From assembly GCA_040954595.2 (NCBI GenBank), contig CM082587.2, forward strand, positions 11,773,262 through 11,837,261: a DNA stretch of 64,000 nucleotides, given 5' to 3'. The DNA comes from Balanoglossus misakiensis. Taxonomy: Eukaryota > Animalia > Hemichordata. The position numbers were made by a program, and so were the translations under genes. Below, one piece after another: positions 213-43,047 of the stretch. The first letter of the stretch is position 1. Each line of letters starts with the position of its first letter. Below the pieces are notes generated by a model. It saw only the letters and a list, made by a program, of their open reading frames with translations. It was not told the origin of the DNA and ran no database searches.

Positions 213-359
213 CCAAAGAGCTTGGCACCTGTTGAAATGAACTCATCTGCTGTGGGCCAGTTTATTGGTGGCAGTTGAGCTGAGGAGAGCACCTTCCTTC
301 CCGGCACGCCACCAAGTAAAGTTCCACGCCGCCCACCACAGATGCCAGCATTCATTCAT
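213..359 (+). other. Exon-like 147-nt segment in module A (first copy; present in every monomer)
   Basis: Preceded by acceptor-like ttttatctattctAG (211-212) and followed by GCGAGT (360) and GTGAGT (364). The diverged copy has cat|GTGAGT at the equivalent position. All three plus frames contain a stop. Confidence 0.4.
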
Positions 360-392
360 GCGAGTGAGTGTAATTGCAAATTTGCCTATTCT

Positions 393-577
393 AGATCTGT
401 AATGGAAATGGAGAAAGTACCTTATATTTTCTGTAAAATAGACATTTAATTGGCAAGCCGTCCTGCATCAATTATGAATTGTGTACATGCACTAAAGCGC
501 CCTCACTGCTGGGTGTGTTGTATGGTCTTTAACCCTGTTTCAAATTAGAGTACTTTCTGCAATTTCAAGACAGATCT
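393..577. mobile_element. Module B: MITE-like 179-bp element with imperfect TIRs (first full copy; present in every 452-bp monomer)
   Basis: Left end tctgtaatggaaatggagaaagtac (396-420) vs reverse complement of right end (550-574) tctgtcttgaaattgcagaaagtac: 20/25 match. Palindromic AGATCT at both ends (393-398, 572-577). Absent as a whole unit from short monomers. Confidence 0.8.
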
Positions 578-3500
578 TACGTGCCATTGGAGAGCTCCAT
601 TGACTGGTCATTCATACTGTTTTCATTCATTCATTGCGGCATCAATATATTTTATCTATTCTAGCCAAAGAGCTTGGCACCTGTTGAAATGAACTCATCT
701 GCTCTGGGCCAGTTTATTGGTGGCAGTTGAGCTGAGGAGAGCACCTTCCTTCCCGGCACGCCACCAAGTAAAGTTCCACGCCGCCCACCACAGATGCCAG
801 CATTCATTCATGCGAGTGAGTGTAATTGCAAATTTGCCTATTCTAGATCTGTAATGGAAATGGAGAAAGTACCTTATATTTTCTGTAAAATAGACATTTA
901 ATTGGCAAGCCGTCCTGCATCAATTATGAATTGTGTACATGCACTAAAGCGCCCTCACTGCTGGGTGTGTTGTATGGTCTTTAACCCTGTTTCAAATTAG
1001 AGTACTTTCTGCAATTTCAAGACAGATCTTACGTGCCATTGGAGAGCTCCATTGACTGGTCATTCATACTGTTTTCATTCATTCATTGCGGCATCAATAT
1101 ATTTTATCTATTCTAGCCAAAGAGCTTGGCACCTGTTGAAATGAACTCATCTGCTGTGGGCCAGTTTATTGGTGGCAGTTGAGCTGAGAAGAGCACCTTC
1201 CTTCCCGGCACGCCACCAAGTAAAGTTCCACGCCGCCCACCACAGATGCCAGCATTCATTCATGCGAGTGAGTGTAATTGCAAATTTGCCTATTCTAGAA
1301 TCTTACGTGCCATTGGAGAGCTCCATTGACTGGTCATTCATACTGTTTTCATTCATTCATTGCGGCATCAATATATTTTATCTATTCTAGCCAAAGAGCT
1401 TGGCACCTGTTGAAATGAACTCATCTGCTGTGGGCCAGTTTATTGGTGGCAGTTGAGCTGAGGAGAGCACCTTCCTTCCCGGGACGCCACCAAGTAAAGT
1501 TCCACGCCGCCCACCACAGATGCCAGCATTCATTCATGCGAGTGAGTGTAATTGCAAATTTGCCTATTCTAGATTCTTACGTGCCATTGGAGAGCTCCAT
1601 TGACTGGTCATTCATACTGTTTTCATTCATTCATTGCGGCATCAATATATTTTATCTATTCTAGCCAAAGAGCTTGGCACCTGTTGAAATGAACTCATCT
1701 GCTGTGGGCCAGTTTATTGGTGGCAGTTGAGCTGAGGAGAGCACCTTCCTTCCCGGCACGCCACCAAGTAAAGTTCCACGCCGCCCACCACAGATGCCAG
1801 CATTCATTCATGCGAGTGAGTGTAATTGCAAATTTGCCTATTCTAGATCTGTAATGGAAATGGAGAAAGTACCTTATATTTTCTGTAAAATAGACATTTA
1901 ATTGGCAAGCCGTCCTGCATCAATTATTAATTGTGTACATGCACTAAAGCGCCCTCACTGCTGGGTGTGTTGTATGGTCTTTAACCCTGTTTCAAATTAG
2001 AGTACTTTCTGCAATTTCAAGACAGATCTTACGTGCCATTGGAGAGCTCCATTGACTGGTCATTCATACTGTTTTCATTCATTCATTGCGGCATCAATAT
2101 ATTTTATCTATTCTAGCCAAAGAGCTTGGCACCTGTTGAAATGAACTCATCTGCTGTGGGCCAGTTTATTGGTGGCAGTTGAGCTGAGGAGAGCACCTTC
2201 CTTCCCGGCACGCCACCAAGTAAAGTTCCACGCCGCCCACCACAGATGCCAGCATTCATTCATGCGAGTGAGTGTAATTGCAAATTTGCCTATTCTAGAA
2301 TTACGTGCCATTGGAGAGCTCCATTGACTGGTCATTCATACTGTTTTCATTCATTCATTGCGGCATCAATATATTTTATCTATTCTAGCCAAAGAGCTTG
2401 GCACCTGTTGAAATGAACTCATCTGCTGTGGGCCAGTTTATTGGTGGCAGTTGAGCTGAGGAGAGCACCTTCCTTCCCGGCACGCCACCAAGTAAAGTTC
2501 CACGCCGCCCACCACAGATGCCAGCATTCATTCATGCGAGTGAGTGTAATTGCAAATTTGCCTATTCTAGATCTGTAATGGAAATGGAGAAAGTACCTTA
2601 TATTTTCTGTAAAATAGACATTTAATTGGCAAGCCGTCCTGCATCAATTATGAATTGTGTACATGCACTAAAGCGCCCTCACTGCTGGGTGTGTTGTATG
2701 GTCTTTAACCCTGTTTCAAATTAGAGTACTTTCTGCAATTTCAAGACAGATCTTACGTGCCATTGGAGAGCTCCATTGACTGGTCATTCATACTGTTTTC
2801 ATTCATTCATTGCGGCATCAATATATTTTATCTATTCTAGCCAAAGAGCTTGGCACCTGTTGAAATGAACTCATCTGCTGTGGGCCAGTTTATTGGTGGC
2901 AGTTGAGCTGAGGAGAGCACCTTCCTTCCCGGCACGCCACCAAGTAAAGTTCCACGCCGCCCACCACAGATGCCAGCATTCATTCATGCGAGTGAGTGTA
3001 ATTGCAAATTTGCCTATTCTAGATCTGTAATGGAAATGGAGAAAGTACCTTATATTTTCTGTAAAATAGACATTTAATTGGCAAGCCGTCCTGCATCAAT
3101 TATGAATTGTGTACATGCACTAAAGCGCCCTCACTGCTGGGTGTGTTGTATGGTCTTTAACCCTGTTTCAAATTAGAGTACTTTCTGCAATTTCAAGACA
3201 GATCTTACGTGCCATTGGAGAGCTCCATTGACTGGTCATTCATACTGTTTTCATTCATTCATTTCGGCATCAATATATTTTATCTATTCTAGCCAAAGAG
3301 CTTGGCACCTGTTGAAATGAACTCATCTGCTGTGGGCCAGTTTATTGGTGGCAGTTGAGCTGAGAAGAGCACCTTCCTTCCCGGCACGCCACCAAGTAAA
3401 GTTCCACGCCGCCCACCACAGATGCCAGCATTCATTCATGCGAGTGAGTGTAATTGCAAATTTGCCTATTCTAGAATCTTACGTGCCATTGGAGAGCTCC

Positions 3501-6500
3501 ATTGACTGGTCATTCATACTGTTTTCATTCATTCATTGCGGCATCAATATATTTTATCTATTCTAGCCAAAGAGCTTGGCACCTGTTGAAATGAACTCAT
3601 CTGCTGTGGGCCAGTTTATTGGTGGCAGTTGAGCTGAGGAGAGCACCTTCCTTCCCGGGACGCCACCAAGTAAAGTTCCACGCCGCCCACCACAGATGCC
3701 AGCATTCATTCATGCGAGTGAGTGTAATTGCAAATTTGCCTATTCTAGATTCTTACGTGCCATTGGAGAGCTCCATTGACTGGTCATTCATACTGTTTTC
3801 ATTCATTCATTGCGGCATCAATATATTTTATCTATTCTAGCCAAAGAGCTTGGCACCTGTTGAAATGAACTCATCTGCTGTGGGCCAGTTTATTGGTGGC
3901 AGTTGAGCTGAGGAGAGCACCTTCCTTCCCGGCACGCCACCAAGTAAAGTTCCACGCCGCCCACCACAGATGCCAGCATTCATTCATGCGAGTGAGTGTA
4001 ATTGCAAATTTGCCTATTCTAGATCTGTAATGGAAATGGAGAAAGTACCTTATATTTTCTGTAAAATAGACATTTAATTGGCAAGCCGTCCTGCATCAAT
4101 TATTAATTGTGTACATGCACTAAAGCGCCCTCACTGCTGGGTGTGTTGTATGGTCTTTAACCCTGTTTCAAATTAGAGTACTTTCTGCAATTTCAAGACA
4201 GATCTTACGTGCCATTGGAGAGCTCCATTGACTGGTCATTCATACTGTTTTCATTCATTCATTGCGGCATCAATATATTTTATCTATTCTAGCCAAAGAG
4301 CTTGGCACCTGTTGAAATGAACTCATCTGCTGTGGGCCAGTTTATTGGTGGCAGTTGAGCTGAGGAGAGCACCTTCCTTCCCGGCACGCCACCAAGTAAA
4401 GTTCCACGCCGCCCACCACAGATGCCAGCATTCATTCATGCGAGTGAGTGTAATTGCAAATTTGCCTATTCTAGAATTACGTGCCATTGGAGAGCTCCAT
4501 TGACTGGTCATTCATACTGTTTTCATTCATTCATTGCGGCATCAATATATTTTATCTATTCTAGCCAAAGAGCTTGGCACCTGTTGAAATGAACTCATCT
4601 GCTGTGGGCCAGTTTATTGGTGGCAGTTGAGCTGAGGAGAGCACCTTCCTTCCCGGCACGCCACCAAGTAAAGTTCCACGCCGCCCACCACAGATGCCAG
4701 CATTCATTCATGCGAGTGAGTGTAATTGCAAATTTGCCTATTCTAGATCTGTAATGGAAATGGAGAAAGTACCTTATATTTTCTGTAAAATAGACATTTA
4801 ATTGGCAAGCCGTCCTGCATCAATTATGAATTGTGTACATGCACTAAAGCGCCCTCACTGCTGGGTGTGTTGTATGGTCTTTAACCCTGTTTCAAATTAG
4901 AGTACTTTCTGCAATTTCAAGACAGATCTTACGTGCCATTGGAGAGCTCCATTGACTGGTCATTCATACTGTTTTCATTCATTCATTGCGGCATCAATAT
5001 ATTTTATCTATTCTAGCCAAAGAGCTTGGCACCTGTTGAAATGAACTCATCTGCTGTGGGCCAGTTTATTGGTGGCAGTTGAGCTGAGGAGAGCACCTTC
5101 CTTCCCGGCACGCCACCAAGTAAAGTTCCACGCCGCCCACCACAGATGCCAGCATTCATTCATGCGAGTGAGTGTAATTGCAAATTTGCCTATTCTAGAT
5201 CTGTAATGGAAATGGAGAAAGTACCTTATATTTTCTGTAAAATAGACATTTAATTGGCAAGCCGTCCTGCATCAATTATTAATTGTGTACATGCACTAAA
5301 GCGCCCTCACTGCTGGGTGTGTTGTATGGTCTTTAACCCTGTTTCAAATTAGAGTACTTTCTGCAATTTCAAGACAGATCTTACGTGCCATTGGAGAGCT
5401 CCATTGACTGGTCATTCATACTGTTTTCATTCATTCATTGCGGCATCAATATATTTTATCTATTCTAGCCAAAGAGCTTGGCACCTGTTGAAATGAACTC
5501 ATCTGCTGTGGGCCAGTTTATTGGTGGCAGTTGAGCTGAGAAGAGCACCTTCCTTCCCGGCACGCCACCAAGTAAAGTTCCACGCCGCCCACCACAGATG
5601 CCAGCATTCATTCATGCGAGTGAGTGTAATTGCAAATTTGCCTATTCTAGATCTGTAATGGAAATGGAGAAAGTACCTTATATTTTCTGTAAAATAGACA
5701 TTTAATTGGCAAGCCGTCCTGCATCAATTATGAATTGTGTACATGCACTAAAGCGCCCTCACTGCTGGGTGTGTTGTATGGTCTTTAACCCTGTTTCAAA
5801 TTAGAGTACTTTCTGCAATTTCAAGACAGATCTTACGTGCCATTGGAGAGCTCCATTGACTGGTCATTCATACTGTTTTCATTCATTCATTGCGGCATCA
5901 ATATATTTTATCTATTCTAGCCAAAGAGCTTGGCACCTGTTGAAATGAACTCATCTGCTGTGGGCCAGTTTATTGGTGGCAGTTGAGCTGAGGAGAGCAC
6001 CTTCCTTCCCGGCACGCCACCAAGTAAAGTTCCACGCCGCCCACCACAGATGCCAGCATTCATTCATGCGAGTGAGTGTAATTGCAAATTTGCCTATTCT
6101 AGATCTGTAATGGAAATGGAGAAAGTACCTTATATTTTCTGTAAAATAGACATTTAATTGGCAAGCCGTCCTGCATCAATTATGAATTGTGTACATGCAC
6201 TAAAGCGCCCTCACTGCTGGGTGTGTTGTATGGTCTTTAACCCTGTTTCAAATTAGAGTACTTTCTGCAATTTCAAGACAGATCTTACGTGCCATTGGAG
6301 AGCTCCATTGACTGGTCATTCATACTGTTTTCATTCATTCATTGCGGCATCAATATATTTTATCTATTCTAGCCAAAGAGCTTGGCACCTGTTGAAATGA
6401 ACTCATCTGCTGTGGGCCAGTTTATTGGTGGCAGTTGAGCTGAGGAGAGCACCTTCCTTCCCGGCACGCCACCAAGTAAAGTTCCACGCCGCCCACCACA

Positions 6501-9500
6501 GATGCCAGCATTCATTCATGCGAGTGAGTGTAATTGCAAATTTGCCTATTCTAGATCTGTAATGGAAATGGAGAAAGTACCTTATATTTTCTGTAAAATA
6601 GACATTTAATTGGCAAGCCGTCCTGCATCAATTATGAATTGTGTACATGCACTAAAGCGCCCTCACTGCTGGGTGTGTTGTATGGTCTTTAACCCTGTTT
6701 CAAATTAGAGTACTTTCTGCAATTTCAAGACAGATCTTACGTGCCATTGGAGAGCTCCATTGACTGGTCATTCATACTGTTTTCATTCATTCATTGCGGC
6801 ATCAATATATTTTATCTATTCTAGCCAAAGAGCTTGGCACCTGTTGAAATGAACTCATCTGCTGTGGGCCAGTTTATTGGTGGCAGTTGAGCTGAGGAGA
6901 GCACCTTCCTTCCCGGCACGCCACCAAGTAAAGTTCCACGCCGCCCACCACAGATGCCAGCATTCATTCATGCGAGTGAGTGTAATTGCAAATTTGCCTA
7001 TTCTAGATCTGTAATGGAAATGGAGAAAGTACCTTATATTTTCTGTAAAATAGACATTTAATTGGCAAGCCGTCCTGCATCAATTATGAATTGTGTACAT
7101 GCACTAAAGCGCCCTCACTGCTGGGTGTGTTGTATGGTCTTTAACCCTGTTTCAAATTAGAGTACTTTCTGCAATTTCAAGACAGATCTTACGTGCCATT
7201 GGAGAGCTCCATTGACTGGTCATTCATACTGTTTTCATTCATTCATTGCGGCATCAATATATTTTATCTATTCTAGCCAAAGAGCTTGGCACCTGTTGAA
7301 ATGAACTCATCTGCTGTGGGCCAGTTTATTGGTGGCAGTTGAGCTGAGAAGAGCACCTTCCTTCCCGGCACGCCACCAAGTAAAGTTCCACGCCGCCCAC
7401 CACAGATGCCAGCATTCATTCATGCGAGTGAGTGTAATTGCAAATTTGCCTATTCTAGAATCTTACGTGCCATTGGAGAGCTCCATTGACTGGTCATTCA
7501 TACTGTTTTCATTCATTCATTGCGGCATCAATATATTTTATCTATTCTAGCCAAAGAGCTTGGCACCTGTTGAAATGAACTCATCTGCTGTGGGCCAGTT
7601 TATTGGTGGCAGTTGAGCTGAGGAGAGCACCTTCCTTCCCGGGACGCCACCAAGTAAAGTTCCACGCCGCCCACCACAGATGCCAGCATTCATTCATGCG
7701 AGTGAGTGTAATTGCAAATTTGCCTATTCTAGATTCTTACGTGCCATTGGAGAGCTCCATTGACTGGTCATTCATACTGTTTTCATTCATTCATTGCGGC
7801 ATCAATATATTTTATCTATTCTAGCCAAAGAGCTTGGCACCTGTTGAAATGAACTCATCTGCTGTGGGCCAGTTTATTGGTGGCAGTTGAGCTGAGGAGA
7901 GCACCTTCCTTCCCGGCACGCCACCAAGTAAAGTTCCACGCCGCCCACCACAGATGCCAGCATTCATTCATGCGAGTGAGTGTAATTGCAAATTTGCCTA
8001 TTCTAGATCTGTAATGGAAATGGAGAAAGTACCTTATATTTTCTGTAAAATAGACATTTAATTGGCAAGCCGTCCTGCATCAATTATGAATTGTGTACAT
8101 GCACTAAAGCGCCCTCACTGCTGGGTGTGTTGTATGGTCTTTAACCCTGTTTCAAATTAGAGTACTTTCTGCAATTTCAAGACAGATCTTACGTGCCATT
8201 GGAGAGCTCCATTGACTGGTCATTCATACTGTTTTCATTCATTCATTGCGGCATCAATATATTTTATCTATTCTAGCCAAAGAGCTTGGCACCTGTTGAA
8301 ATGAACTCATCTGCTGTGGGCCAGTTTATTGGTGGCAGTTGAGCTGAGGAGAGCACCTTCCTTCCCGGCACGCCACCAAGTAAAGTTCCACGCCGCCCAC
8401 CACAGATGCCAGCATTCATTCATGCGAGTGAGTGTAATTGCAAATTTGCCTATTCTAGATCTGTAATGGAAATGGAGAAAGTACCTTATATTTTCTGTAA
8501 AATAGACATTTAATTGGCAAGCCGTCCTGCATCAATTATGAATTGTGTACATGCACTAAAGCGCCCTCACTGCTGGGTGTGTTGTATGGTCTTTAACCCT
8601 GTTTCAAATTAGAGTACTTTCTGCAATTTCAAGACAGATCTTACGTGCCATTGGAGAGCTCCATTGACTGGTCATTCATACTGTTTTCATTCATTCATTG
8701 CGGCATCAATATATTTTATGTATTCTAGCCAAAGAGCTTGGCACCTGTTGAAATGAACTCATCTGCTGTGGGCCAGTTTATTGGTGGCAGTTGAGCTGAG
8801 GAGAGCACCTTCCTTCCCGGCACGCCACCAAGTAAAGTTCCACGCCGCCCACCACAGATGCCAGCATTCATTCATGCGAGTGAGTGTAATTGCAAATTTG
8901 CCTATTCTAGATCTGTAATGGAAATGGAGAAAGTACCTTATATTTTCTGTAAAATAGACATTTAATTGGCAAGCCGTCCTGCATCAATTATTAATTGTGT
9001 ACATGCACTAAAGCGCCCTCACTGCTGGGTGTGTTGTATGGTCTTTAACCCTGTTTCAAATTAGAGTACTTTCTGCAATTTCAAGACAGATCTTACGTGC
9101 CATTGGAGAGCTCCATTGACTGGTCATTCATACTGTTTTCATTCATTCATTGCGGCATCAATATATTTTATCTATTCTAGCCAAAGAGCTTGGCACCTGT
9201 TGAAATGAACTCATCTGCTGTGGGCCAGTTTATTGGTGGCAGTTGAGTTGAGGAGAGCACCTTCCTTCCCGGCACGCCACCAAGTAAAGTTCCACGCCGC
9301 CCACCACAGATGCCAGCATTCATTCATGCGAGTGAGTGTAATTGCAAATTTGCCTATTCTAGAATTCTTACGTGCCATTGGAGAGCTCCATTGACTGGTC
9401 ATTCATACTGTTTTCATTCATTCATTGCGGCATCAATATATTTTATGTATTCTAGCCAAAGAGCTTGGCACCTGTTGAAATGAACTCATCTGCTGTGGGC

Positions 9501-15500: not shown

Positions 15501-18155
15501 AATATATTTTATCTATTCTAGCCAAAGAGCTTGGCACCTGTTGAAATGAACTCATCTGCTGTGGGCCAGTTTATTGGTGGCAGTTGAGCTGAGGAGAGCA
15601 CCTTCCTTCCCGGCACGCCACCAAGTAAAGTTCCACGCCGCCCACCACAGATGCCAGCATTCATTCATGCGAGTGAGTGTAATTGCAAATTTGCCTATTC
15701 TAGATCTGTAATGGAAATGGAGAAAGTACCTTATATTTTCTGTAAAATAGACATTTAATTGGCAAGCCGTCCTGCATCAATTATTAATTGTGTACATGCA
15801 CTAAAGCGCCCTCACTGCTGGGTGTGTTGTATGGTCTTTAACCCTGTTTCAAATTAGAGTACTTTCTGCAATTTCAAGACAGATCTTACGTGCCATTGGA
15901 GAGCTCCATTGACTGGTCATTCATACTGTTTTCATTCATTCATTGCGGCATCAATATATTTTATCTATTCTAGCCAAAGAGCTTGGCACCTGTTGAAATG
16001 AACTCATCTGCTGTGGGCCAGTTTATTGGTGGCAGTTGAGCTGAGGAGAGCACCTTCCTTCCCGGCACGCCACCAAGTAAAGTTCCACGCCGCCCACCAC
16101 AGATGCCAGCATTCATTCATGCGAGTGAGTGTAATTGCAAATTTGCCTATTCTAGATCTGTAATGGAAATGGAGAAAGTACCTTATATTTTCTGTAAAAT
16201 AGACATTTAATTGGCAAGCCGTCCTGCATCAATTATGAATTGTGTACATGCACTAAAGCGCCCTCACTGCTGGGTGTGTTGTATGGTCTTTAACCCTGTT
16301 TCAAATTAGAGTACTTTCTGCAATTTCAAGACAGATCTTACGTGCCATTGGAGAGCTCCATTGACTGGTCATTCATACTGTTTTCATTCATTCATTGCGG
16401 CATCAATATATTTTATGTATTCTAGCCAAAGAGCTTGGCACCTGTTGAAATGAACTCATCTGCTGTGGGCCAGTTTATTGGTGGCAGTTGAGCTGAGGAG
16501 AGCACCTTCCTTCCCGGCACGCCACCAAGTAAAGTTCCACGCCGCCCACCACAGATGCCAGCATTCATTCATGCGAGTGAGTGTAATTGCAAATTTGCCT
16601 ATTCTAGATCTGTAATGGAAATGGAGAAAGTACCTTATATTTTCTGTAAAATAGACATTTAATTGGCAAGCCGTCCTGCATCAATTATTAATTGTGTACA
16701 TGCACTAAAGCGCCCTCACTGCTGGGTGTGTTGTATGGTCTTTAACCCTGTTTCAAATTAGAGTACTTTCTGCAATTTCAAGACAGATCTTACGTGCCAT
16801 TGGAGAGCTCCATTGACTGGTCATTCATACTGTTTTCATTCATTCATTGCGGCATCAATATATTTTATCTATTCTAGCCAAAGAGCTTGGCACCTGTTGA
16901 AATGAACTCATCTGCTGTGGGCCAGTTTATTGGTGGCAGTTGAGCTGAGGAGAGCACCTTCCTTCCCGGCACGCCACCAAGTAAAGTTCCACGCCGCCCA
17001 CCACAGATGCCAGCATTCATTCATGCGAGTGAGTGTAATTGCAAATTTGCCTATTCTAGAATTACGTGCCATTGGAGAGCTCCATTGACTGGTCATTCAT
17101 ACTGTTTTCATTCATTCATTGCGGCATCAATATATTTTATCTATTCTAGCCAAAGAGCTTGGCACCTGTTGAAATGAACTCATCTGCTGTGGGCCAGTTT
17201 ATTGGTGGCAGTTGAGCTGAGGAGAGCACCTTCCTTCCCGGCACGCCACCAAGTAAAGTTCCACGCCGCCCACCACAGATGCCAGCATTCATTCATGCGA
17301 GTGAGTGTAATTGCAAATTTGCCTATTCTAGATCTGTAATGGAAATGGAGAAAGTACCTTATATTTTCTGTAAAATAGACATTTAATTGGCAAGCCGTCC
17401 TGCATCAATTATGAATTGTGTACATGCACTAAAGCGCCCTCACTGCTGGGTGTGTTGTATGGTCTTTAACCCTGTTTCAAATTAGAGTACTTTCTGCAAT
17501 TTCAAGACAGATCTTACGTGCCATTGGAGAGCTCCATTGACTGGTCATTCATACTGTTTTCATTCATTCATTGCGGCATCAATATATTTTATCTATTCTA
17601 GCCAAAGAGCTTGGCACCTGTTGAAATGAACTCATCTGCTGTGGGCCAGTTTATTGGTGGCAGTTGAGCTGAGGAGAGCACCTTCCTTCCCGGCACGCCA
17701 CCAAGTAAAGTTCCACGCCGCCCACCACAGATGCCAGCATTCATTCATGCGAGTGAGTGTAATTGCAAATTTGCCTATTCTAGATCTGTAATGGAAATGG
17801 AGAAAGTACCTTATATTTTCTGTAAAATAGACATTTAATTGGCAAGCCGTCCTGCATCAATTATGAATTGTGTACATGCACTAAAGCGCCCTCACTGCTG
17901 GGTGTGTTGTATGGTCTTTAACCCTGTTTCAAATTAGAGTACTTTCTGCAATTTCAAGACAGATCTTACGTGCCATTGGAGAGCTCCATTGACTGGTCAT
18001 TCATACTGTTTTCATTCATTCATTGCGGCATCAATATATTTTATCTATTCTAGCCAAAGAGCTTGGCACCTGTTGAAATGAACTCATCTGCTGTGGGCCA
18101 GTTTATTGGTGGCAGTTGAGCTGAGGAGAGCACCTTCCTTCCCGGCACGCCACCA

Positions 18156-19959
18156 AGTAAAGTTCCACGTGCATTCCTGGCCCTGGTTTTATTTATGTTT
18201 ACAGACAATATTGCATTTTTGTACAAGTATTTTAATCAACTATAAATTTTGAATGTGTCATTTACCTGAACCGGTCATGTTGACCAGAATGATACATTTC
18301 TGCCTTCACTCACCCTATAAATATGTGATTGAGACATAGGTCATTTGCATAAGCTAACATACCAGAAAGTAAGCATATCTGTTGTTTTCCCTGTGTCACT
18401 GCCATCAAAGTAAAAATTAGACGTTGTGTAGAGCAAACTCCAATTTTTTGTTCTCAATAAACATGGATGAATTACATAGAATGTGTTTGTTGTTTACAGT
18501 CTTTAAATGACACATTAGATTATGCACTTTACAAAACGTTTCTGAGAAACAAGTGACTAACTAGTTTCTTTCCACTGTGGCCAACGTGGTTCACTGTTTG
18601 TGTCAGAATCTCTCTGTTTTGCAAGGATTTTGAAATCATAGTGGTGACATGCATAGTGAAAATCAGCTACTTTCAAATGTCCGTCATGTTCATGCTGTAA
18701 TTGAATTTTCAAAGCTGGGCTGGCGTGTTTTTTCTTATTTACATAAGTATCACACTTTATACATGTATCTTCATGGGGTTTTTTGAGTCCCGTATTTAGG
18801 TCCTCTCTCACAATTTTACGAAATATCGTATAACTGACAGTTGTTCTTCCCAGAAGAGATTGGTTGGTTATGAACTCTCGGTGTAACTGCGATATACTGT
18901 GGTCCGGCGCCAGGTACGGTTTAAATCGAGGATTCCTGCAGTAGTGAGATTCTACAATTCTGTGCCTGCGTACGTGTTCAGTGATATCAGTCAGCAAATT
19001 TGGATTGAGTTTCCGACGATGCCCTTTGTGTCGGCCCCTTGCATCTGGCATCAGACCAGTAAAGTTCCATGTGCATTCCTGGCCCTGGTTTTATTTATGT
19101 TTACAGACAATATTGCATTTTTGTACAAGTATTTTAATCAACTATAAATTTTGAATGTGTCATTTACCTGAACCGGTCATGTTGACCAGAATGATACATT
19201 TCTGCCTTCACTCACCCTATAAATATGTGATTGAGACATAGGTCATTTGCATAAGCTAACATACCAGAAAGTAAGCATATCTGTTGTTTTCCCTGTGTCA
19301 CTGCCATCAAAGTAAAAATTAGACGTTGTGTAGAGCAAACTCCAATTTTTTGTTCTCAATAAACATGGATGAATTACATAGAATGTGTTTGTTGTTTACA
19401 GTCTTTAAATGACACATTAGATTATGCACTTTACAAAACGTTTCTGAGAAACAAGTGACTAACTAGTTTCTTTCCACTGTGGCCAACGTGGTTCACTGTT
19501 TGTGTCAGAATCTCTCTGTTTTGCAAGGATTTTGAAATCATAGTGGTGACATGCATAGTGAAAATCAGCTACTTTCAAATGTCCGTCATGTTCATGCTGT
19601 AATTGAATTTTCAAAGCTGGGCTGGCGTGTTTTTTCTTATTTACATAAGTATCACACTTTATACATGTATCTTCATGGGGTTTTCTGAGTCCCGTATTTA
19701 GGTCCTCTCTCACAATTTTACGAAATATCGTATAACTGACAGTTGTTCTTCCCAGAAGAGATTGGTTGGTTATGAACTCTCGGTGTAACTGCGATATACT
19801 GTGGTCCGGCGCCAGGTACGGTTTAAATCGAGGATTCCTGCAGTAGTGAGATTCTACAATTCTGTGCCTGCGTACGTGTTCAGTGATATCAGTCAGCAAA
19901 TTTGGATTGAGTTTCCGACGATGCCCTTTGTGTCGGCCCCTTGCATCTGGCATCAGACC
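18156..19959. repeat. 902-bp direct tandem duplication (18156-19057 / 19058-19959)
   Basis: Same sequence at offset 902, with agt microhomology at the junction. Two substitutions noticed: c18168/t19070 and a K/R codon change. Confidence 0.95.
18557..19051 (-). pseudogene. 5'-truncated duplicate of the transposase N-half gene (164 aa, open from an internal Met)
   Basis: Identical to the last 164 aa of the 19459-20415 protein except one R/K change. Lies in the 902-bp duplication. Confidence 0.75.
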
Positions 19960-20415
19960 AGTTGAACAGTGCATCATTTTGCTTAGAACGGTTCTAGTCC
20001 GCCTCTCACTAATGCCAAATAATTTCAGGAATGCATTTTTGCAGACAGTAACCGTTTCACCGCCTTCATTCACCAGGTGATAACGAACCGATTTCTTGTG
20101 TGACTTCATCTGTATATCCATCAGTTTGTAGAGCATCAAGTTCTGTTCATTATACACGCGACCATCAAAATATTTTCTCGTGGTGCCTAAAACATGCGTA
20201 CTCCCAAGCTTCCGCAGACAATTCCCTTGAACGCAGGCGCATTCCAAGGAAAGACTGTCAATATCTGGAAAAGGGCGATTTTTCCTTGGTTTTTGTCTCG
20301 GACACGTCTTTTTAGAATTCCTACGTGGCTTGTTGGCTCGAGCTGACAGTTCGGTTCTGCGTTGCTGCCACACAGGAATGGGTTCCCACGCATAAGCAAC
20401 TCCCCGGCAGGCCAT
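19459..20415 (-). CDS. N-terminal half of Sola1-like transposase (DNA-binding/Zn region), 318 aa
   Basis: First ATG at 20415. Motifs CACVQGNC, VTVCKNAFLKLFGISERR, DARGRH, ESHYCR..YL, SYTIFRKIV..N.GL.KPHEDTCIKCD, H..HL..A are typical of the region preceding the catalytic core in this family. Confidence 0.8.
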   Translation of the reverse strand: MACRGVAYAWEPIPVWQQRRTELSARANKPRRNSKKTCPRQKPRKNRPFPDIDSLSLECACVQGNCLRKLGSTHVLGTTRKYFDGRVYNEQNLMLYKLMDIQMKSHKKSVRYHLVNEGGETVTVCKNAFLKLFGISERRTRTVLSKMMHCSTGLMPDARGRHKGHRRKLNPNLLTDITEHVRRHRIVESHYCRNPRFKPYLAPDHSISQLHREFITNQSLLGRTTVSYTIFRKIVREDLNTGLRKPHEDTCIKCDTYVNKKKHASPALKIQLQHEHDGHLKVADFHYACHHYDFKILAKQRDSDTNSEPRWPQWKETS

Positions 20416-20586
20416 GGTCACAGCTGAAGTATTTGTTCAAGTACTGACTGACTAAACGCGGCATGGAACAAACGAACGAACGAACGAACGACTTCACGTT
20501 CGGAAAAAAAATCGTTGCGAGCTGTTGGGTGCCTCTATAGTTGTCGGCAACCGTTCTTTTTTATTGCTAAACAATGCTGTCAGAGC
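20416..20586. promoter_or_regulatory. Putative 171-bp bidirectional promoter between the two transposase halves
   Basis: Head-to-head ATGs at 20415(-) and 20587(+). Contains short (ACTG)n and (AACG)5 repeats. Function inferred from position only. Confidence 0.5.
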
Positions 20587-21600
20587 ATGGAAGGTGTGGT
20601 GGAAAACGAACAGAGGTTTTGTACGACCAACGATTGGATGGTGCTACATATGGACTTCCACAAGTCATTGCCGGTTCCTAAACTCAGCTCTGAAGACTTT
20701 TACTTTAAATCGAAATTGCAAATGAAGCTCCTTGGAATTTACAACGGGACAACGGAAAAGATGCATTGTTATGTATGGACAGAGCTCGATAGCAGAAAGT
20801 CTCCCGATGAAGTTATTACCTGTCTAAATCACTTTTTTTATAACTCGGGTGTGACCAGCAGACATGCAGTTATTTACAGCGACAACTGCCGTGCCGAATT
20901 CAAGTGTGGGAAGTTAATGTTTTACTATGACTATCTGTTACGAAAGGGCGTGTTTCGACGAATTGACTATAAAACTCTTGTGGCTGGACACACGTACTCC
21001 ACCTGTGACCGAGTTTTTGCGTCCATTGAAAGGCATGCAAGTCGTTTCCAGAGTATAGAGACACCTCACGATTGGACATCTGTGATTCGAGGATCTTCTC
21101 TGAATGGGAACATTGGAGTTACGGAGATGACTCACAGAGACTTTTTCAATTATTCTGATTTCCTGAAAAATGAGTACGTTGTGCGTTATGCAGATACAAA
21201 CAATGTAACTTTTTACTACCAAGCCATGCACTATTTTAATTTTGGAGAAGGAGAAAGGCTTGATACCGACGGCAACCTCAGAACATTTAGTCATGCAGAT
21301 AAAGTTTGGGTGAGAACATCTCTAGATCCAAGCGAGACCCCGATTGTAGTCGACTTTAGAAAGAAGAAGCAGAACCGGCGTTTACAAGATTGTACGCTGA
21401 ACAAACTTTATCAGGAACGTCGACCACTGGCGAGCAAAGTTTGGCGGGATCTTCAGAGTTTAGCCAAAAATTACCTGTCTCCGGAGGCAATAGAATTTTA
21501 TAGGAATCTACCGCTTCAGGAGAGTAGTGGCACCTCTGCAGACCCGTACGCCTTTCATGATGATGACGACGACGATGATGATGATATGGGCGGTGGTTGA
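20587..21600 (+). CDS. Catalytic (RNase H-fold DDD) half of Sola1-like transposase, 337 aa, acidic tail
   Basis: MDFHKSLPVP...FYFKSKL...CYVWTE...EVITCL...YSDNC...KTLVAGHTYSTCDRVFASIE: three candidate catalytic Asp intact. First ATG at 20587. ATTAAA at 21701. Confidence 0.87.
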   Translation: MEGVVENEQRFCTTNDWMVLHMDFHKSLPVPKLSSEDFYFKSKLQMKLLGIYNGTTEKMHCYVWTELDSRKSPDEVITCLNHFFYNSGVTSRHAVIYSDNCRAEFKCGKLMFYYDYLLRKGVFRRIDYKTLVAGHTYSTCDRVFASIERHASRFQSIETPHDWTSVIRGSSLNGNIGVTEMTHRDFFNYSDFLKNEYVVRYADTNNVTFYYQAMHYFNFGEGERLDTDGNLRTFSHADKVWVRTSLDPSETPIVVDFRKKKQNRRLQDCTLNKLYQERRPLASKVWRDLQSLAKNYLSPEAIEFYRNLPLQESSGTSADPYAFHDDDDDDDDDMGGG

Positions 21601-21918
21601 ACAAACTGTCCTTTTCATGACGACAGTGATTTTGGATATTTGATGTGCGTGCACAGTTTATATGTAATATTTTCACACGAACGAGTTTTGACTGAATTTG
21701 ATTAAAGAATGTACTCGATAATTAACAAATGTGCTGAATCGTGGTTATTATGTTGTTAATTTTTGTTTGTTTGTTTGTTTGTTTGTAAACAATTTCCGTT
21801 CATTCAACTGGCTACAAAGTTGGATTTTTGTACTGGGAAGCGATAAACTCGCACATCAAAACCGGGGAGACTCGATCATTTTTCCCTGCAGGTAGCCTGA
21901 AAAGCACCCGGGCAGAGA

Positions 21919-21991
21919 TTACGTCATATATGGTCCACTTTAATACGAAATTATGCAAATGTGACATTTCACGGAAACGGCGTATATAAAA
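21919..21991 (+). promoter_or_regulatory. Pol II promoter-like cluster upstream of wHTH-SET gene
   Basis: CRE-like TTACGTCA 21919-21926, octamer ATGCAAAT 21953-21960, TATATAAAA 21983-21991, about 90 bp before ATG 22084. Confidence 0.55.
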
Positions 21992-22083
21992 GCGACCCTG
22001 GGCTATTGTTCGGAATGCGTCATCGACGAGAGAGTGACTGATAATTCTTCTACCTCGAGTCAACCATTCTGTATATACTGAAC

Positions 22084-23410
22084 ATGGCTAGCTGGCGCAG
22101 GAAGAGACAAGGCAATGTGCGGTCTGTAATCAACGAACGGCACCGCTCAGTTCAGTGTCCCTTTCTTCAAAAGTGGATCGGTGAGCAATTGGTATTTTCA
22201 GGTCGTTCAGAGGATGAAGTCCAGTCCAGTACTGTATTTGAGAGCTACAAATGTTGGGTTGAAAACTATTCGTCGGCGGACAATCAAGTAATGATTATGG
22301 TTACTAAAGCTCGATTTTTCAAGGTGAGAATGATCGCATTTTTCTTCCCCCCCCCCCTCCCTCCCCCAAGGGACTCGTTTTCTGTCTCTTTTAAACCTGT
22401 AACTTAACGAAAAGGAAGTTTTTCACATATCTCTTTGTTGACACTATAGCAATTTGGAGCGCGGATGCTTCAAGAGAATAGCGTTACCAAATCAAAGTCG
22501 GCCGGGGTTAATATTTATAGAGGTGTTCGTCTGAAAGCTGGTTCGCGAAGAATCTCAACGGGGAAACCTGAGCACAGTGTACTTCAGACCAGGGCAAGGG
22601 CATTTCTTGATGACGCCAGCGTGACCGTTCCGATCGAGGTAAGAATGGTGTTTTGTTTGGACTAGGACAATAGAACGTTGCAATGAGTGTGTCAATGGGT
22701 GTCCAAGTGCAAACGTGGTCGGCTTCTGTCCACAAATGCCATTAATTTTAGGCAGGATTTATAAAATTGTCAATGAAGAATACAAAAATGAAAAACAATA
22801 GTTAATAGCAAACGGGTAGGATTGCAAGGGCTTGTAAAACGGTACACACTGTACCAGGAAGTTTGCAACACTAATGAAGAATGTATATGATATATTTAGG
22901 TGAGAACTGTTCGCGATCGCCGGGACGCAGGACGGTGCGCGTTTTCGACGAGGGATCTTCAAGCCTGGAACGTCGTCTGCGAATACCGGGGCACGGTTAT
23001 TAGCGTTGAAGAAGCTAGTCGGCGTGATGAACTTTACAGGGCAGAGGGGAAACGACCACGCATGTTTCATCTCTACATTGGAAAGAGACACGTTGTGTGA
23101 GTGTATCACTTAGTCGAATATATGGTCATATATTGCAAAGCATCTGTCGAAATAGAAAACGTAATATTGTCTATATTTTCCTCATTAACGCAGCATTGAC
23201 GGATACGATGTCCCAGCCGGTGAAGAAAATTTAGCGGGCCTAATAAATCACAGTCAGCAGAACGCCAACTTGGTACCGGTTCGGATCGGAGAGCGCCTGG
23301 TTTTCTTTGCAACCAGGAATCTTTGTCAGGGAGTAGAGCTTTTGTATGATTACGGTGACGGGGGTGAAGAGGATTTCTTCAGTGGTTCTCAAACTTTTCC
23401 TGAAAATTAA
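22084..23410 (+). CDS. 4-exon gene: D5/RFX-like winged helix fused to SET8/PR-Set7(KMT5A)-like SET domain, ~280 aa
   Basis: Exons 22084-22323, 22450-22638, 22900-23096, 23194-23410 joined by GT-AG introns (phases 0, 0, 2) give one open frame. SET motifs AGRCAFSTRDL..VVCEYRG, IDG, LAGLINHS..N, FATRNL..GVELLYDYGD. N-terminus FLQKWI..VQSSTVFESYKCW..KARFFKQFG..NIYRGVRLK resembles a wHTH. Confidence 0.88.
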
Positions 23411-24319
23411 GGCATTAACACATCAACGCTTCGGGATGTCGTAACGGCGGCAAGGCGGGGGGGGGGGGGGGGGGGGCGTGAAAATGTTTGTATCAGGAAC
23501 AAAATTCCCGTGCAAATCACCTTGATCCGGGTGGGTGGACTATTCGCGACAAATGTTGGAAATCATACAAAGCATTTTACTTAATTAACCCATTTTTTTC
23601 ATTTATTTGTTTACAGTTTACAACGTCATAGAGAAGTTGAACTAGAGACTGGATCAGCGTGGGTGACACCATAGTACACCAATGTTTTCTTCAGTTTGAT
23701 TCAATTGTAATTTAAAACTGAGATTGCCTAACGCTTTCCCAGATTTTTTTAACCACTGAGAAACTGTGGGTTTTTTTCTGGGTTTTGGTGCGAGGTGATC
23801 TCAGTCAGTGGTGTTAATTTAATTAATCATTTTCTTTTCCTATTTACGTCGACTGAAATGTATTTTGATAGGTGATAGTCATACCATAAAAAAATCTTAC
23901 GGCGCGACTGCCAAAATGTACATTTATTTGTCCGTTCCAAGTTATTTTGTGTATGTGTGATGGGTGCCGGTGACTGTGCAGGGTTGATTTCCCTAGAGCG
24001 ACTGTTATATTCGTTTTCCAACGATGATGAATTTACATGTTATTTGCTTGGCATTTTGACGCAGAGACACTTCTGAAAACACAAACCTATTAATTATGCC
24101 ACGGGTGTAAATTGATCACATTAAAAGAGGCTTTAGACGTTTGCCGCGAGCTCCTGGTGGGCAGAATCTTGTCAGCCCAAATTTGACTATAAGTACATAG
24201 CCAATGATGTGACGCTCTCCCACATCCTTCGCCGCGCCTTTTCGCTGATTTACAGCATCTTGCGTAAACACTGTCATTTGATCTTGCTTGGCAGAAGTCA
24301 ACTTGCTCTATACTACATT

Positions 24320-24685
24320 ATGGCGGCCAAGCTCAACTGCATATCAGATAATGCCAAGGAGCGTTTGAGAGGCATCCTCGCCAGAAGGAGTCGCGTTTCC
24401 GGTGACTGTGTGCTCTGGACGGGTGCAGCTTGTCGAAACGGCTATGGCTCTATTACGTTCAGAGATGAGAACACTCTAACCGCCTATGTCCATCACATTG
24501 CACTCCTAATTAACGGAGTGCAATTGGTGGGCAGGCGGTTAGAGTGTTCTCATCTTTGCAACGAAAAGCTATGCATCCGCCCAGAGCACATTGTCCAGGA
24601 AACGCGACTCCTAAACATTTCACGAAAGACGTGCTTTAAATCCCCAAAAGGGGAGTGTCACCACGATCCCAGGTGCCTAAGGTGA
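24320..24685 (+). CDS. His-Me finger endonuclease (zinc-binding loop homing endonuclease, I-PpoI-like), 121 aa
   Basis: CVLWTGA..NGYGSI...YVHH...ECSHLCNEKLCIRPEHIVQET..LNISRKTC...CHHDPRC. First ATG at 24320. The stop overlaps a strong donor AAG|GTGAGT, so the 3' end may be spliced. Confidence 0.88.
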   Translation: MAAKLNCISDNAKERLRGILARRSRVSGDCVLWTGAACRNGYGSITFRDENTLTAYVHHIALLINGVQLVGRRLECSHLCNEKLCIRPEHIVQETRLLNISRKTCFKSPKGECHHDPRCLR

Positions 24686-25598
24686 GTAATCCTCTTCTCA
24701 TTTGATATGTATTGTGTGACCCTGCAGTTGAAACGCTTTCATCAATAATTTGCGGCGCGTGGGTAATCTCGGTGTTATTGACAATGCAGCCGGCCCAAAC
24801 ATTTTTAAATTAACACTGTTTCTGACTGTATTAACGAAATGTCCAATTTGCAAGTAGCCTATAGACAACCCTTTTGAATGAGTTTTGTCTCGTTGAGATT
24901 TTATACATAAGGAACAATCTAGATTTATTTTAGAAGACACTGTTCTTTTAAAACAGCTAGCATAATACAGCTAAATTTCGGAATTTCCGGACAATTTTCG
25001 GAATTCCTTTTAAATTTGAGAAATTTTTCATCAGATATAAGTGTTACTATTTATTGGACATGTTTTTATCATTGTTTACTTTTTAAGGTCATTCTCATCC
25101 CCCCCCCCCCCCCCAAAAAAAAGCCGCTTTAGGCTTCATGTTCAGTAAAAAATCTGGAAAGTTCAGCTGAATTTTACACTGATCACACATTTTTGGGAAG
25201 GTCTGGCGCAAAATAAAGGATGACAAATGTAAATCTAATGTCACATTTGTAAACCTCTAAGTATTGTACACTCATTCTATTAAGTATATGCAAATAGTAC
25301 GGATAATTTTTTCGGAATGTGGAATTCCGAAATTAGTTCGGAACGTGTTAGCAGTGAAGAGATCACCACTGAGGGTTGGAAGGCCTTGCCAGAAATTAAC
25401 GCGTAAAGTACGCCCTCACAGGCCATGTAAACAAGGTCAAATAAGGCCGTCTGGCAAACGAATGATTAATTCAACGCGCCATTTGAGCCGAGCTGAGTTG
25501 GTCTGAGTTGCGTATCACACAGACTTAGGCTGAATGTCAGTGGAGTAACCAGTCCGTTTTAGATTTACCAATGATGTGAATTTAATTTCTTCACCCAG

Positions 25599-26000
25599 AA
25601 AAACAGAACACAACTTGTCTGCAACATGATGCTGGAGGTGACACATGACAGAGAAGTGGATCCGCGTTGTCAACACAGATGCCAGCATTCAAAAGGGGAG
25701 TGCCACCTGCTAAAATCAACTCATCTGCTGTTGGCCCATTTTACCTGTGGCAACTGTTCAGAGGAGACAACGTTTATTCCGTGCAAGCCAACACGCAATG
25801 TTGGGGTCTACCTGTCAACACAGATGCAAGCATTCATGTGAGTGAGTATCAGGACTGACCTTGTTTTGCTGAATAATTCATAATGCCTATTTTAGAATTC
25901 TTAGAGGCATTTGGAGTTCATTGCCTGGTCAACCAAACTACACCCCTTAACAGCTGAAACAAAATGCGTATTGTGTTCATTCATTCATTGCTTCAATATA
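25599..26000 (+). repeat. Diverged copy of satellite module A inside the cassette
   Basis: Blocks acagatgccagcattca, aactcatctgctgt, agcattcatgtgagtgagt, tgcctattttagaattctta, ctggtca and ttcattcattcattgc occur in monomer order. Internal direct repeat tgtcaacacagatgc at 25668 and 25813. Confidence 0.85.
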
Positions 26001-26316
26001 TATAGGCAACATGAGTATCAAGTAGCACTATTTGTTTACGATTGTATTCATGAAAACTTCCCACTAACAATTCCACAGTTAATATTGAACACATTTATCC
26101 AACAAGGTCAAAAGAAAAAGGGAATCTTCTGGTTCCAAAATACGCCACAAATGTGGGTCAACATACAGTGAAATATTATGGTGCTCAAATATGCAACATA
26201 TCAAATCTGTCTCATCAAAGTCATGCTTTAAAAAAGAATTGAAAAGGTATTATTTATCCATTTGACTGCTGTATTTTCAGAAGGAAAACAAACTGAATTT
26301 GGTTTTTCATGTACAA

Positions 26317-29300
26317 ATATTTTCTGTAAAATAGACATTTAATTGGCAAGCCGTCCTGCATCAATTATTAATTGTGTACATGCACTAAAGCGCCCTCACT
26401 GCTGGGTGTGTTGTATGGTCTTTAACCCTGTTTCAAATTAGAGTACTTTCTGCAATTTCAAGACAGATCTTACGTGCCATTGGAGAGCTCCATTGACTGG
26501 TCATTCATACTGTTTTCATTCATTCATTGCGGCATCAATATATTTTATGTATTCTAGCCAAAGAGCTTGGCACCTGTTGAAATGAACTCATCTGCTGTGG
26601 GCCAGTTTATTGGTGGCAGTTGAGCTGAGGAGAGCACCTTCCTTCCCGGCACGCCACCAAGTAAAGTTCCACGCCGCCCACCACAGATGCCAGCATTCAT
26701 TCATGCGAGTGAGTGTAATTGCAAATTTGCCTATTCTAGATCTGTAATGGAAATGGAGAAAGTACCTTATATTTTCTGTAAAATAGACATTTAATTGGCA
26801 AGCCGTCCTGCATCAATTATTAATTGTGTACATGCACTAAAGCGCCCTCACTGCTGGGTGTGTTGTATGGTCTTTAACCCTGTTTCAAATTAGAGTACTT
26901 TCTGCAATTTCAAGACAGATCTTACGTGCCATTGGAGAGCTCCATTGACTGGTCATTCATACTGTTTTCATTCATTCATTGCGGCATCAATATATTTTAT
27001 CTATTCTAGCCAAAGAGCTTGGCACCTGTTGAAATGAACTCATCTGCTGTGGGCCAGTTTATTGGTGGCAGTTGAGCTGAGGAGAGCACCTTCCTTCCCG
27101 GCACGCCACCAAGTAAAGTTCCACGCCGCCCACCACAGATGCCAGCATTCATTCATGCGAGTGAGTGTAATTGCAAATTTGCCTATTCTAGAATTACGTG
27201 CCATTGGAGAGCTCCATTGACTGGTCATTCATACTGTTTTCATTCATTCATTGCGGCATCAATATATTTTATCTATTCTAGCCAAAGAGCTTGGCACCTG
27301 TTGAAATGAACTCATCTGCTGTGGGCCAGTTTATTGGTGGCAGTTGAGCTGAGGAGAGCACCTTCCTTCCCGGCACGCCACCAAGTAAAGTTCCACGCCG
27401 CCCACCACAGATGCCAGCATTCATTCATGCGAGTGAGTGTAATTGCAAATTTGCCTATTCTAGATCTGTAATGGAAATGGAGAAAGTACCTTATATTTTC
27501 TGTAAAATAGACATTTAATTGGCAAGCCGTCCTGCATCAATTATGAATTGTGTACATGCACTAAAGCGCCCTCACTGCTGGGTGTGTTGTATGGTCTTTA
27601 ACCCTGTTTCAAATTAGAGTACTTTCTGCAATTTCAAGACAGATCTTACGTGCCATTGGAGAGCTCCATTGACTGGTCATTCATACTGTTTTCATTCATT
27701 CATTGCGGCATCAATATATTTTATCTATTCTAGCCAAAGAGCTTGGCACCTGTTGAAATGAACTCATCTGCTGTGGGCCAGTTTATTGGTGGCAGTTGAG
27801 CTGAGGAGAGCACCTTCCTTCCCGGCACGCCACCAAGTAAAGTTCCACGCCGCCCACCACAGATGCCAGCATTCATTCATGCGAGTGAGTGTAATTGCAA
27901 ATTTGCCTATTCTAGAATCTTACGTGCCATTGGAGAGCTCCATTGACTGGTCATTCATACTGTTTTCATTCATTCATTGCGGCATCAATATATTTTATCT
28001 ATTCTAGCCAAAGAGCTTGGCACCTGTTGAAATGAACTCATCTGCTGTGGGCCAGTTTATTGGTGGCAGTTGAGCTGAGGAGAGCACCTTCCTTCCCGGC
28101 ACGCCACCAAGTAAAGTTCCACGCCGCCCACCACAGATGCCAGCATTCATTCATGCGAGTGAGTGTAATTGCAAATTTGCCTATTCTAGATCTGTAATGG
28201 AAATGGAGAAAGTACCTTATATTTTCTGTAAAATAGACATTTAATTGGCAAGCCGTCCTGCATCAATTATTAATTGTGTACATGCACTAAAGCGCCCTCA
28301 CTGCTGGGTGTGTTGTATGGTCTTTAACCCTGTTTCAAATTAGAGTACTTTCTGCAATTTCAAGACAGATCTTACGTGCCATTGGAGAGCTCCATTGACT
28401 GGTCATTCATACTGTTTTCATTCATTCATTGCGGCATCAATATATTTTATCTATTCTAGCCAAAGAGCTTGGCACCTGTTGAAATGAACTCATCTGCTGT
28501 GGGCCAGTTTATTGGTGGCAGTTGAGCTGAGAAGAGCACCTTCCTTCCCGGCACGCCACCAAGTAAAGTTCCACGCCGCCCACCACAGATGCCAGCATTC
28601 ATTCATGCGAGTGAGTGTAATTGCAAATTTGCCTATTCTAGATCTGTAATGGAAATGGAGAAAGTACCTTATATTTTCTGTAAAATAGACATTTAATTGG
28701 CAAGCCGTCCTGCATCAATTATGAATTGTGTACATGCACTAAAGCGCCCTCACTGCTGGGTGTGTTGTATGGTCTTTAACCCTGTTTCAAATTAGAGTAC
28801 TTTCTGCAATTTCAAGACAGATCTTACGTGCCATTGGAGAGCTCCATTGACTGGTCATTCATACTGTTTTCATTCATTCATTGCGGCATCAATATATTTT
28901 ATCTATTCTAGCCAAAGAGCTTGGCACCTGTTGAAATGAACTCATCTGCTGTGGGCCAGTTTATTGGTGGCAGTTGAGCTGAGGAGAGCACCTTCCTTCC
29001 CGGCACGCCACCAAGTAAAGTTCCACGCCGCCCACCACAGATGCCAGCATTCATTCATGCGAGTGAGTGTAATTGCAAATTTGCCTATTCTAGATCTGTA
29101 ATGGAAATGGAGAAAGTACCTTATATTTTCTGTAAAATAGACATTTAATTGGCAAGCCGTCCTGCATCAATTATGAATTGTGTACATGCACTAAAGCGCC
29201 CTCACTGCTGGGTGTGTTGTATGGTCTTTAACCCTGTTTCAAATTAGAGTACTTTCTGCAATTTCAAGACAGATCTTACGTGCCATTGGAGAGCTCCATT

Positions 29301-42591: not shown

Positions 42592-43047
42592 AGTTGAACA
42601 GTGCATCATTTTGCTTAGAACGGTTCTAGTCCGCCTCTCACTAATGCCAAATAATTTCAGGAATGCATTTTTGCAGACAGTAACCGTTTCACCGCCTTCA
42701 TTCACCAGGTGATAACGAACCGATTTCTTGTGTGACTTCATCTGTATATCCATCAGTTTGTAGAGCATCAAGTTCTGTTCATTATACACGCGACCATCAA
42801 AATATTTTCTCGTGGTGCCTAAAACATGCGTACTCCCAAGCTTCCGCAGACAATTCCCTTGAACGCAGGCGCATTCCAAGGAAAGACTGTCAATATCTGG
42901 AAAAGGGCGATTTTTCCTTGGTTTTTGTCTCGGACACGTCTTTTTAGAATTCCTACGTGGCTTGTTGGCTCGAGCTGACAGTTCGGTTCTGCGTTGCTGC
43001 CACACAGGAATGGGTTCCCACGCATAAGCAACTCCCCGGCAGGCCAT
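42091..43047 (-). CDS. N-terminal half of Sola1-like transposase, copy 2
   Basis: Same translation as 19459-20415. Confidence 0.8.
   Translation of the reverse strand: MACRGVAYAWEPIPVWQQRRTELSARANKPRRNSKKTCPRQKPRKNRPFPDIDSLSLECACVQGNCLRKLGSTHVLGTTRKYFDGRVYNEQNLMLYKLMDIQMKSHKKSVRYHLVNEGGETVTVCKNAFLKLFGISERRTRTVLSKMMHCSTGLMPDARGRHKGHRRKLNPNLLTDITEHVRRHRIVESHYCRNPRFKPYLAPDHSISQLHREFITNQSLLGRTTVSYTIFRKIVREDLNTGLRKPHEDTCIKCDTYVNKKKHASPALKIQLQHEHDGHLKVADFHYACHHYDFKILAKQRDSDTNSEPRWPQWKETS

Follow-up and report, generated by a model that had tools for sequence, protein, structure and literature searches.

Short empty junctions in a hemichordate satellite array as probable excision footprints of a terminal-inverted-repeat element

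Arrays of tandem DNA transposons that originate by double insertion and are then expanded were described by McGurk and Barbash in 2018 (PMC5932611). The KolobokP elements of Kojima and Bao (2022; PMC9587614) likewise form tandem multimers, from which internal units bearing terminal inverted repeats (TIRs) are excised with footprints, and they encode a His-Me nuclease; they have TTAA-type target duplications, RR..YY ends and long terminal direct repeats bearing the TIRs, and their footprints are one-sided deletions of 1-5 bp. At Ac/Ds and Hermes sites (hAT), 1 nt of the flank is lost and the complement of a lost base is added, the clean product being rare (PMC1978519, PMC5499845), and hAT, Transib, MULE and RAG are listed among the makers of hairpins on flanking DNA (PMC5499845). 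Here we analyse a 64,000-nucleotide stretch of the hemichordate Balanoglossus misakiensis (GenBank assembly GCA_040954595.2, contig CM082587.2, positions 11,773,262 to 11,837,261 of the forward strand; hereafter, the window). The window consists mostly of a satellite in which a 267-bp core, A, is joined to the next either via a 185-bp filled site holding a 177-bp TIR element, B, or via a short empty junction. Four types of empty junction are, in our judgement, probably fossil excision footprints of B that were amplified inside the satellite, most likely footprints of the flank-hairpin type.

The window contains 119 junctions, 80 of them filled and 39 empty, B filling about two thirds of the satellite units. 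The empty ones fall into four classes, AGAATCT (a, 16 copies), AGAAT (d, 12), AGATTCT (t, 10) and AGAATTCT (X, 1), while neither the clean AGATCT nor the doubled AGATATCT occurs at any of the 119. Elsewhere the length of the array is constant, at 267 bp in 119 of 119 A cores and 185 bp in 80 of 80 filled inserts. Copies of A differ pairwise by 0.24% on average, the differences amount to seven substitution types in A and one in B, no A core or B copy contains an indel, and the AAAA, TTTT, (TTCA)n and ATATAT runs elsewhere in the unit are indel-free in the window. The chance of indels sharing one 8-bp interval of the 452-bp unit is about 6e-6 for three and about 1e-7 for four. An earlier note on this sequence had listed the four junctions, the absence of the clean product and the concentration of indels at this one site, all of which we found to be correct; its reading of the flanks as 6-bp AGATCT repeats has to be replaced by a 2-bp AT duplication plus inverted element ends.

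All four junctions were recovered in Logan contigs of run X2, which is possibly the window's own assembly sample and so counters assembly error without being an independent sample. A fifth junction (e), present in contigs and outside the window, is 10 bases shorter than AGAATTCT. Contig depths in X2, which do not equal copy numbers, were about 25,000 for a, 8,700 for X, 6,286 for t, 5,714 for the fifth junction and 4,673 for d. In run X1, a was the sole empty form among the joints listed; all four runs used (X1 to X4) were available as contigs, from which rare variants drop out. The satellite is also present, at low depth and at least 99% identity, in runs X3 and X4, which carry the label of another organism; only the filled and a forms occur there (compared over window positions 260-710), and the source would be either a relative or carry-over. 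Several other contig joints, namely GATC-GATC joints, a joint at which B 'goes back', a junction with GA put in and a fold-back loose end, were considered as candidate B circles or new junctions and rejected because they match ligation at GATC/GANTC ends, as would be expected in proximity-ligation libraries.

The inverted ends of B match at 19 of 24 bases. The contigs contain a few diverged relatives of B with other flanks; relatives begin after (AT)n in two X1 and three X2 contigs and end before (AT)n in one contig. These (AT)n flanks lead us to delimit B as CTGT..ACAG (397-573) and to assign it a 2-bp AT duplication; taken by themselves they do not define the ends to single-base precision, and the elements in related loci L009-L011, described below, agree with CTGT and AT. 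Short, non-coding, TIR-bearing and flanked by an apparent target duplication, B resembles a miniature inverted-repeat transposable element (MITE) or non-autonomous TIR element. Ends at TGT..ACA with a GATC duplication, as in Ginger-like elements, were rejected: the relatives carry C and G beside (AT)n, and models with such ends miss X and d.

We enumerated the products of seven cut-and-repair models. Only one, a flank hairpin of the Ac/Hermes type in which the first nick lies 1 nt outside the element, can generate all of a, t, d and X with no need for untemplated bases. Among untrimmed products it ranks t and a highest (3-nt microhomology), followed by X and one unobserved form (2-nt), and it offers the clean AGATCT a single route with zero microhomology. 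The other six models favour AGATCT, AGATATCT or longer products, none of which was seen; models with RAG-type hairpins, Tc1-type overhangs, blunt trimming or alternative ends all miss X and d. The a and t forms are reachable in all seven, and the fifth junction, a plain deletion, does not discriminate between them. By their sequence, the footprints would thus fit a hAT-type flank hairpin nicked 1 nt outside the element. A transposase would have excised B in at least four separate events, the first nick falling 1 nt outside the element and the flank ends sealing into hairpins; the host would then have opened these off-centre and joined them via short microhomology. In this way AT would have become AAT in a, ATT in t and AATT in X, with d and the fifth junction as trimmed forms. 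Unequal exchange would subsequently have multiplied the scarred units into higher-order repeats. The enzyme would probably have come from a family of transposons with a split DUF7869 transposase, a left-truncated member of which, with both transposase halves open, probably sits in the array.

The likeness to Ds extends to the individual classes: Table 1 of PMC1978519 holds the same ones, 15 of its 17 footprints being, by our inspection, the flank minus 1 nt plus the complement of a lost base, and its authors placed the cut at the nucleotide flanking the insertion. Unlike hAT footprints, those of the array are fixed and amplified inside a satellite. Elements of hAT have 8-bp target duplications, whereas the flanks here, TTCTAGAT and ATCTTACG, share only AT as a direct repeat; and the hAT transposase carries a helical insertion domain, whereas the candidate enzyme for B is DUF7869 only by Pfam and has a predicted compact core.

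The neighbourhoods of the empty junctions indicate how many events they represent. All 10 copies of t follow G160A-a-C180G, and all 12 of d lie in one context; of the 16 copies of a, 11 come after G160A and the other 5 after consensus A, which makes two contexts, and the single X is flanked by A copies at most one substitution from the consensus. A 22,632-bp higher-order unit recurs within the window. From these fixed single-nucleotide neighbours and the repeating unit it follows that the 39 empty sites are about 4-5 events and their copies: the empty sites spread by array expansion, and the events are old enough to have been amplified. The earlier note's proposal of repeated independent cut-and-repair at this site is still the best reading, with the number of events reduced in this way. 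Set against eight substitution types in 452 bp, at least four excisions correspond, by our arithmetic, to about 200 times the per-base rate.

A comparable scar was found outside the window, among 42 related metagenome loci, several of them near-duplicates. Locus L010 holds a 13.6-kb element running from AT|CTGTCC (182) to GGACAG|AT (13749), with both transposase halves and a SET gene inside; a comparable TIR pair arose in 3 of 300 shuffles, and the right TIR of B matches that of the L010 element at 16 of 24 bases. Loci L009 and L011 have the same ends, and their successive units are divided by a 127-bp spacer. In L010 a doubled spacer contains an empty junction in which AT has become ATT, as in t; this scar is among the top four products of the offset-hairpin model and outside the top eight of the model with no offset. 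The ends of the 127-bp spacer (L009, 242-368) are partly inverted copies of each other beyond AT, which hints at a symmetric target preference. In L011 (1-114) the element is joined to other sequence at a point about 320 bp upstream of its right end. This resembles the segment-to-B junction of the window and perhaps marks a shorter derivative within the same array. An ACAG-(AT)n end in L017 was weak and failed the TIR scan.

Several points weigh against flank-hairpin excision of B by a DUF7869 enzyme. The seven models were picked after the junctions were known. For a and t by themselves, 1-nt trimming or a 1-nt overhang would suffice, which leaves X and d to single out the hairpin. The footprint outside the window is one junction in one contig, and L008-L011, at 97.7-99.7% identity, count as one family. 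The candidate enzyme is linked to B by shared ends and position only; the 8,147-bp segment that encodes it is missing its left end and might have become joined to B by non-homologous capture. The known makers of flank hairpins carry a large helical insertion domain. The catalytic half is predicted to be compact, and none of the structural matches listed for it is a hAT, Transib or RAG protein; they are integrases, IstA and herpes terminases. Either the enzyme is unusual, or it makes no hairpins, or another enzyme cut B. Finally, a diverged copy of A inside the segment reads AGAATTCT, as would be expected if X were a site that had never been filled.

This last point leads to the alternative that AGAATTCT is the never-filled ancestor and that a site-specific nuclease, for instance the His-Me enzyme, cut it repeatedly. 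The fifth junction, like a, t and d, would then be a repair product, and B would have been captured or inserted at a derivative of the site. The diverged A and the surroundings of the X site match at 19 of 20 bases, the a, t, d and e forms can each be derived from X by simple deletion at about 1 nt of microhomology, and a His-Me gene is present in the array, such a role having been proposed for that of KolobokP (PMC9587614). The filled site, however, is not obtainable from X by insertion plus duplication and needs an AGATCT intermediate, which was seen 0 times; the deletion to which X should be most prone, of 8 bp with 5-nt microhomology, does not occur in the window and is not listed in contigs; and the nuclease occurs in none of the 42 related loci, yet L010 bears a scar of the same type. 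We therefore hold this account to be unlikely. The first two of these points, together with the high rank of X among the products of the offset-hairpin model, lead us to regard the AGAATTCT of the diverged A, tentatively, as an earlier footprint of this type. The earlier note had allowed either transposase excision or endonuclease cleavage; its interpretation is supported, and the data favour transposase excision. It had also named, as the case that would overturn it, descent of all short forms by ordinary slippage from one never-filled ancestor. The a and t forms are indeed single-base losses in the AA and TT of X, but the restriction of all indels to 8 of 452 bp, the longer runs that are indel-free in the window and the unexplained filled state make slippage very improbable; the ancestor itself is kept partly alive by the diverged A.

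Excision might also proceed by a transposase that makes no hairpins and leaves blunt ends or 1-nt 5' flank overhangs, a and t then arising via an A-A mismatch or 1-nt trimming, d by a later deletion in a, and X being a surviving ancestral or converted site. The accessibility of a and t to every model, the t-type scar in L010 and the compact DDE fold, which would suit a double-nicking enzyme, speak for such a route. It must nevertheless invoke extra events for X and d, its blunt version favours the two unseen products AGATCT and AGATATCT, and X lies between A copies too close to the consensus for an old survivor, so that we give it only a small chance of being correct. That the variants are assembly or sequencing errors is scarcely credible: X is seen once in the window, but a, t and d recur in fixed contexts, and all four are present in the short-word contigs of X2 at depths in the thousands. 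Offset-hairpin excision stays the preferred explanation. The features of the window are collected in the table.

Table 1. Positions of satellite, junction and gene features in the 64,000-nucleotide window.
Feature	Position	Strand	Remarks
AT of the presumed 2-bp target duplication, left-hand copy	395..396 (right copy 574-575)	.	from sequence, (AT)n-flanked relatives and AT on both sides of the L009-L011 element
B, non-coding 177-bp TIR element, MITE-like, CTGT..ACAG	397..573 (first whole copy)	.	80 copies in window; TIR 19/24
A, 267-bp spacer core	578..844	.	119 whole copies, 7 substitution types, no indels
Empty junction a, AGAATCT	1297..1303	+	16 copies, two contexts
Empty junction t, AGATTCT	1571..1577	+	10 copies, all following G160A-a-C180G
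Empty junction d, AGAAT	2297..2301	+	12 copies, single context
Empty junction X, AGAATTCT	9361..9368	+	once in window; also present in run X2 contigs
Non-satellite segment, 8,147 bp	18170..26316	.	left end joins A, right end joins the right 150 bp of B
Truncated duplicate of the N-half frame	18557-19090		
N-terminal half of DUF7869-type transposase, open frame	19459..20415	-	fused to the catalytic half in 50/51 long relatives
Catalytic DDE half, open frame	20587..21600	+	PF25273 DUF7869, E 1.4e-14
Intron-containing gene ending in a SET domain	22084..23411	+	exon limits inferred from sequence
His-Me finger endonuclease frame	24137..24685	+	PF05551, E 6.7e-13
Diverged copy of A	25701..25991	+	191/239 aligned columns identical; AGAATTCT at its junction site (25894-25901)
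Right 150 bp of B, ends ACAG then AT	26317..26466	.	closes the long segment

The 8,147-bp segment has a near-identical second copy at 40802-48948, and its junction to B was recovered in X2 contigs. Because it ends in the right 150 bp of B, it is likely to be, or plausibly represents, a left-truncated long element of the B family. From the shared ends, its DUF7869 transposase may be the one that moves B. The two halves of this transposase are encoded by two intronless genes on opposite strands, arranged head-to-head in the window. A 902-bp tandem duplication (18156-19959, 2 differences) has doubled the point at which A meets the segment, leaving a second N-half frame truncated. Among the related loci, the halves lie on opposite strands in 10 of 42 (L002, L004, L006, L008-L013 and L017), there tail-to-tail and with varying order of the SET gene, and on the same strand in 2 distant loci; a SET match stands beside the transposase in 9 of 42. 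The catalytic half retains D99, G134, H135, D141 and E148, with a short spacing from D99 to D141/E148, and its AlphaFold model (mean pLDDT 93.7) predicts a compact integrase-like RNase H fold that matches integrase-type cores weakly (best E 2e-4). A full HMMER search returned 3,054 relatives at E up to 0.001; a word-index search with the same half found no homolog at 189-602 aa, a sequence search of the PDB gave nothing under E 0.88, and the N-half was present in 0 of the 11 proteins closest to the catalytic half.

The SET gene, to whose N-terminus we give the presumptive label 'winged-helix-like', has a SET domain whose best matches, KMT2C and KMT5A/SETD8, are weak; it could alter chromatin at its own arrays. 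The His-Me frame contains a 26-nt inverted repeat (24460-24558), and an 18-nt stretch at 25690 is 94% like the end of this frame (24645). Between the frame and the diverged A (24985-25343) lies a 23-nt inverted repeat in which TTCCGGAA-like words are abundant, and a direct repeat with 145-bp spacing occurs in the diverged A (25668-25836). The A core itself carries a splice-acceptor-like and a donor-like motif (GA/GTGAGT, retained in the diverged copy) and no conserved open frame; it was ruled out as a coding exon by stops and by frame-breaking indels relative to the diverged copy, and its interpretation as a Helitron-like element (TC..CTAG) leaves the inverted ends of B and the (AT)n copies unexplained. 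A sequence at 20309 that agrees with the X site at 16 of 18 bases (E 0.16) was treated as chance. Rfam gave 0 matches up to E 1 in 17300-27500, and of 24 pattern matches in viral contigs none was related.

The array shares with KolobokP the multimers, the internal excision and the type of nuclease, but differs in its CT..AG ends with AT, in its transposase and in a nuclease that is not conserved in related loci; the available text of PMC9587614 makes no mention of a SET gene. In the arrays of PMC5932611, by contrast, units are separated by the target duplication only, and the word excision is absent from the main text. With Sola1 and its MITEs the array has in common TIR elements in AT-rich targets. 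We take the SDNC..K and GH..D..F..IE motifs of the transposase to resemble those of Sola1 transposases. The hallmark of Sola1, however, is a 4-bp AWWT duplication, with a single open reading frame of about 630 aa in one example (PMC3845634), whereas the flanks read AGAT/ATCT here and CAAT/ATTA in L009, with a 2-bp AT and no AWWT, and the transposase is encoded by two separate genes. The available portions of PMC4455052, PMC5751038, PMC10294476, PMC13565253 and PMC7351741 leave the placement of the family unsettled. A 2-bp AT duplication, found at B and in L009-L011, is shared with another group. ISL2EU elements have such a duplication and carry a PIF/IS5-like transposase together with a YqaJ exonuclease, neither of which had a Pfam match among the 7 frames scanned.

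The footprint type is known, while the element family, with its AT target, split transposase, SET cargo and spacer arrays, is apparently undescribed: the literature searched, which lay outside Repbase, Dfam, supplements and most subscription papers, held no description of a split-DUF7869 family or of an excision-scarred satellite, and the family may already be catalogued. We suggest, tentatively and with the greater part of our expectation still against it, an animal transposon lineage defined by CTGT..ACAG ends, an AT target, a split transposase, SET cargo and spacer arrays, in which a compact core without an insertion domain would excise via hairpins and the satellite would serve as a dated excision tape. 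The array holds several independent excisions from one identical donor site beside a substitution clock, and in it a TIR element acts as a recurrent break site inside a satellite. It has also led to a conserved family of SET-carrying elements with a split transposase. The scars yield a prediction of how a widespread transposase group, one that has no solved relative by sequence, cuts DNA. Should flank hairpins indeed be made by a compact DDE core, the connection of the insertion domain with RAG-like cleavage would need revising.

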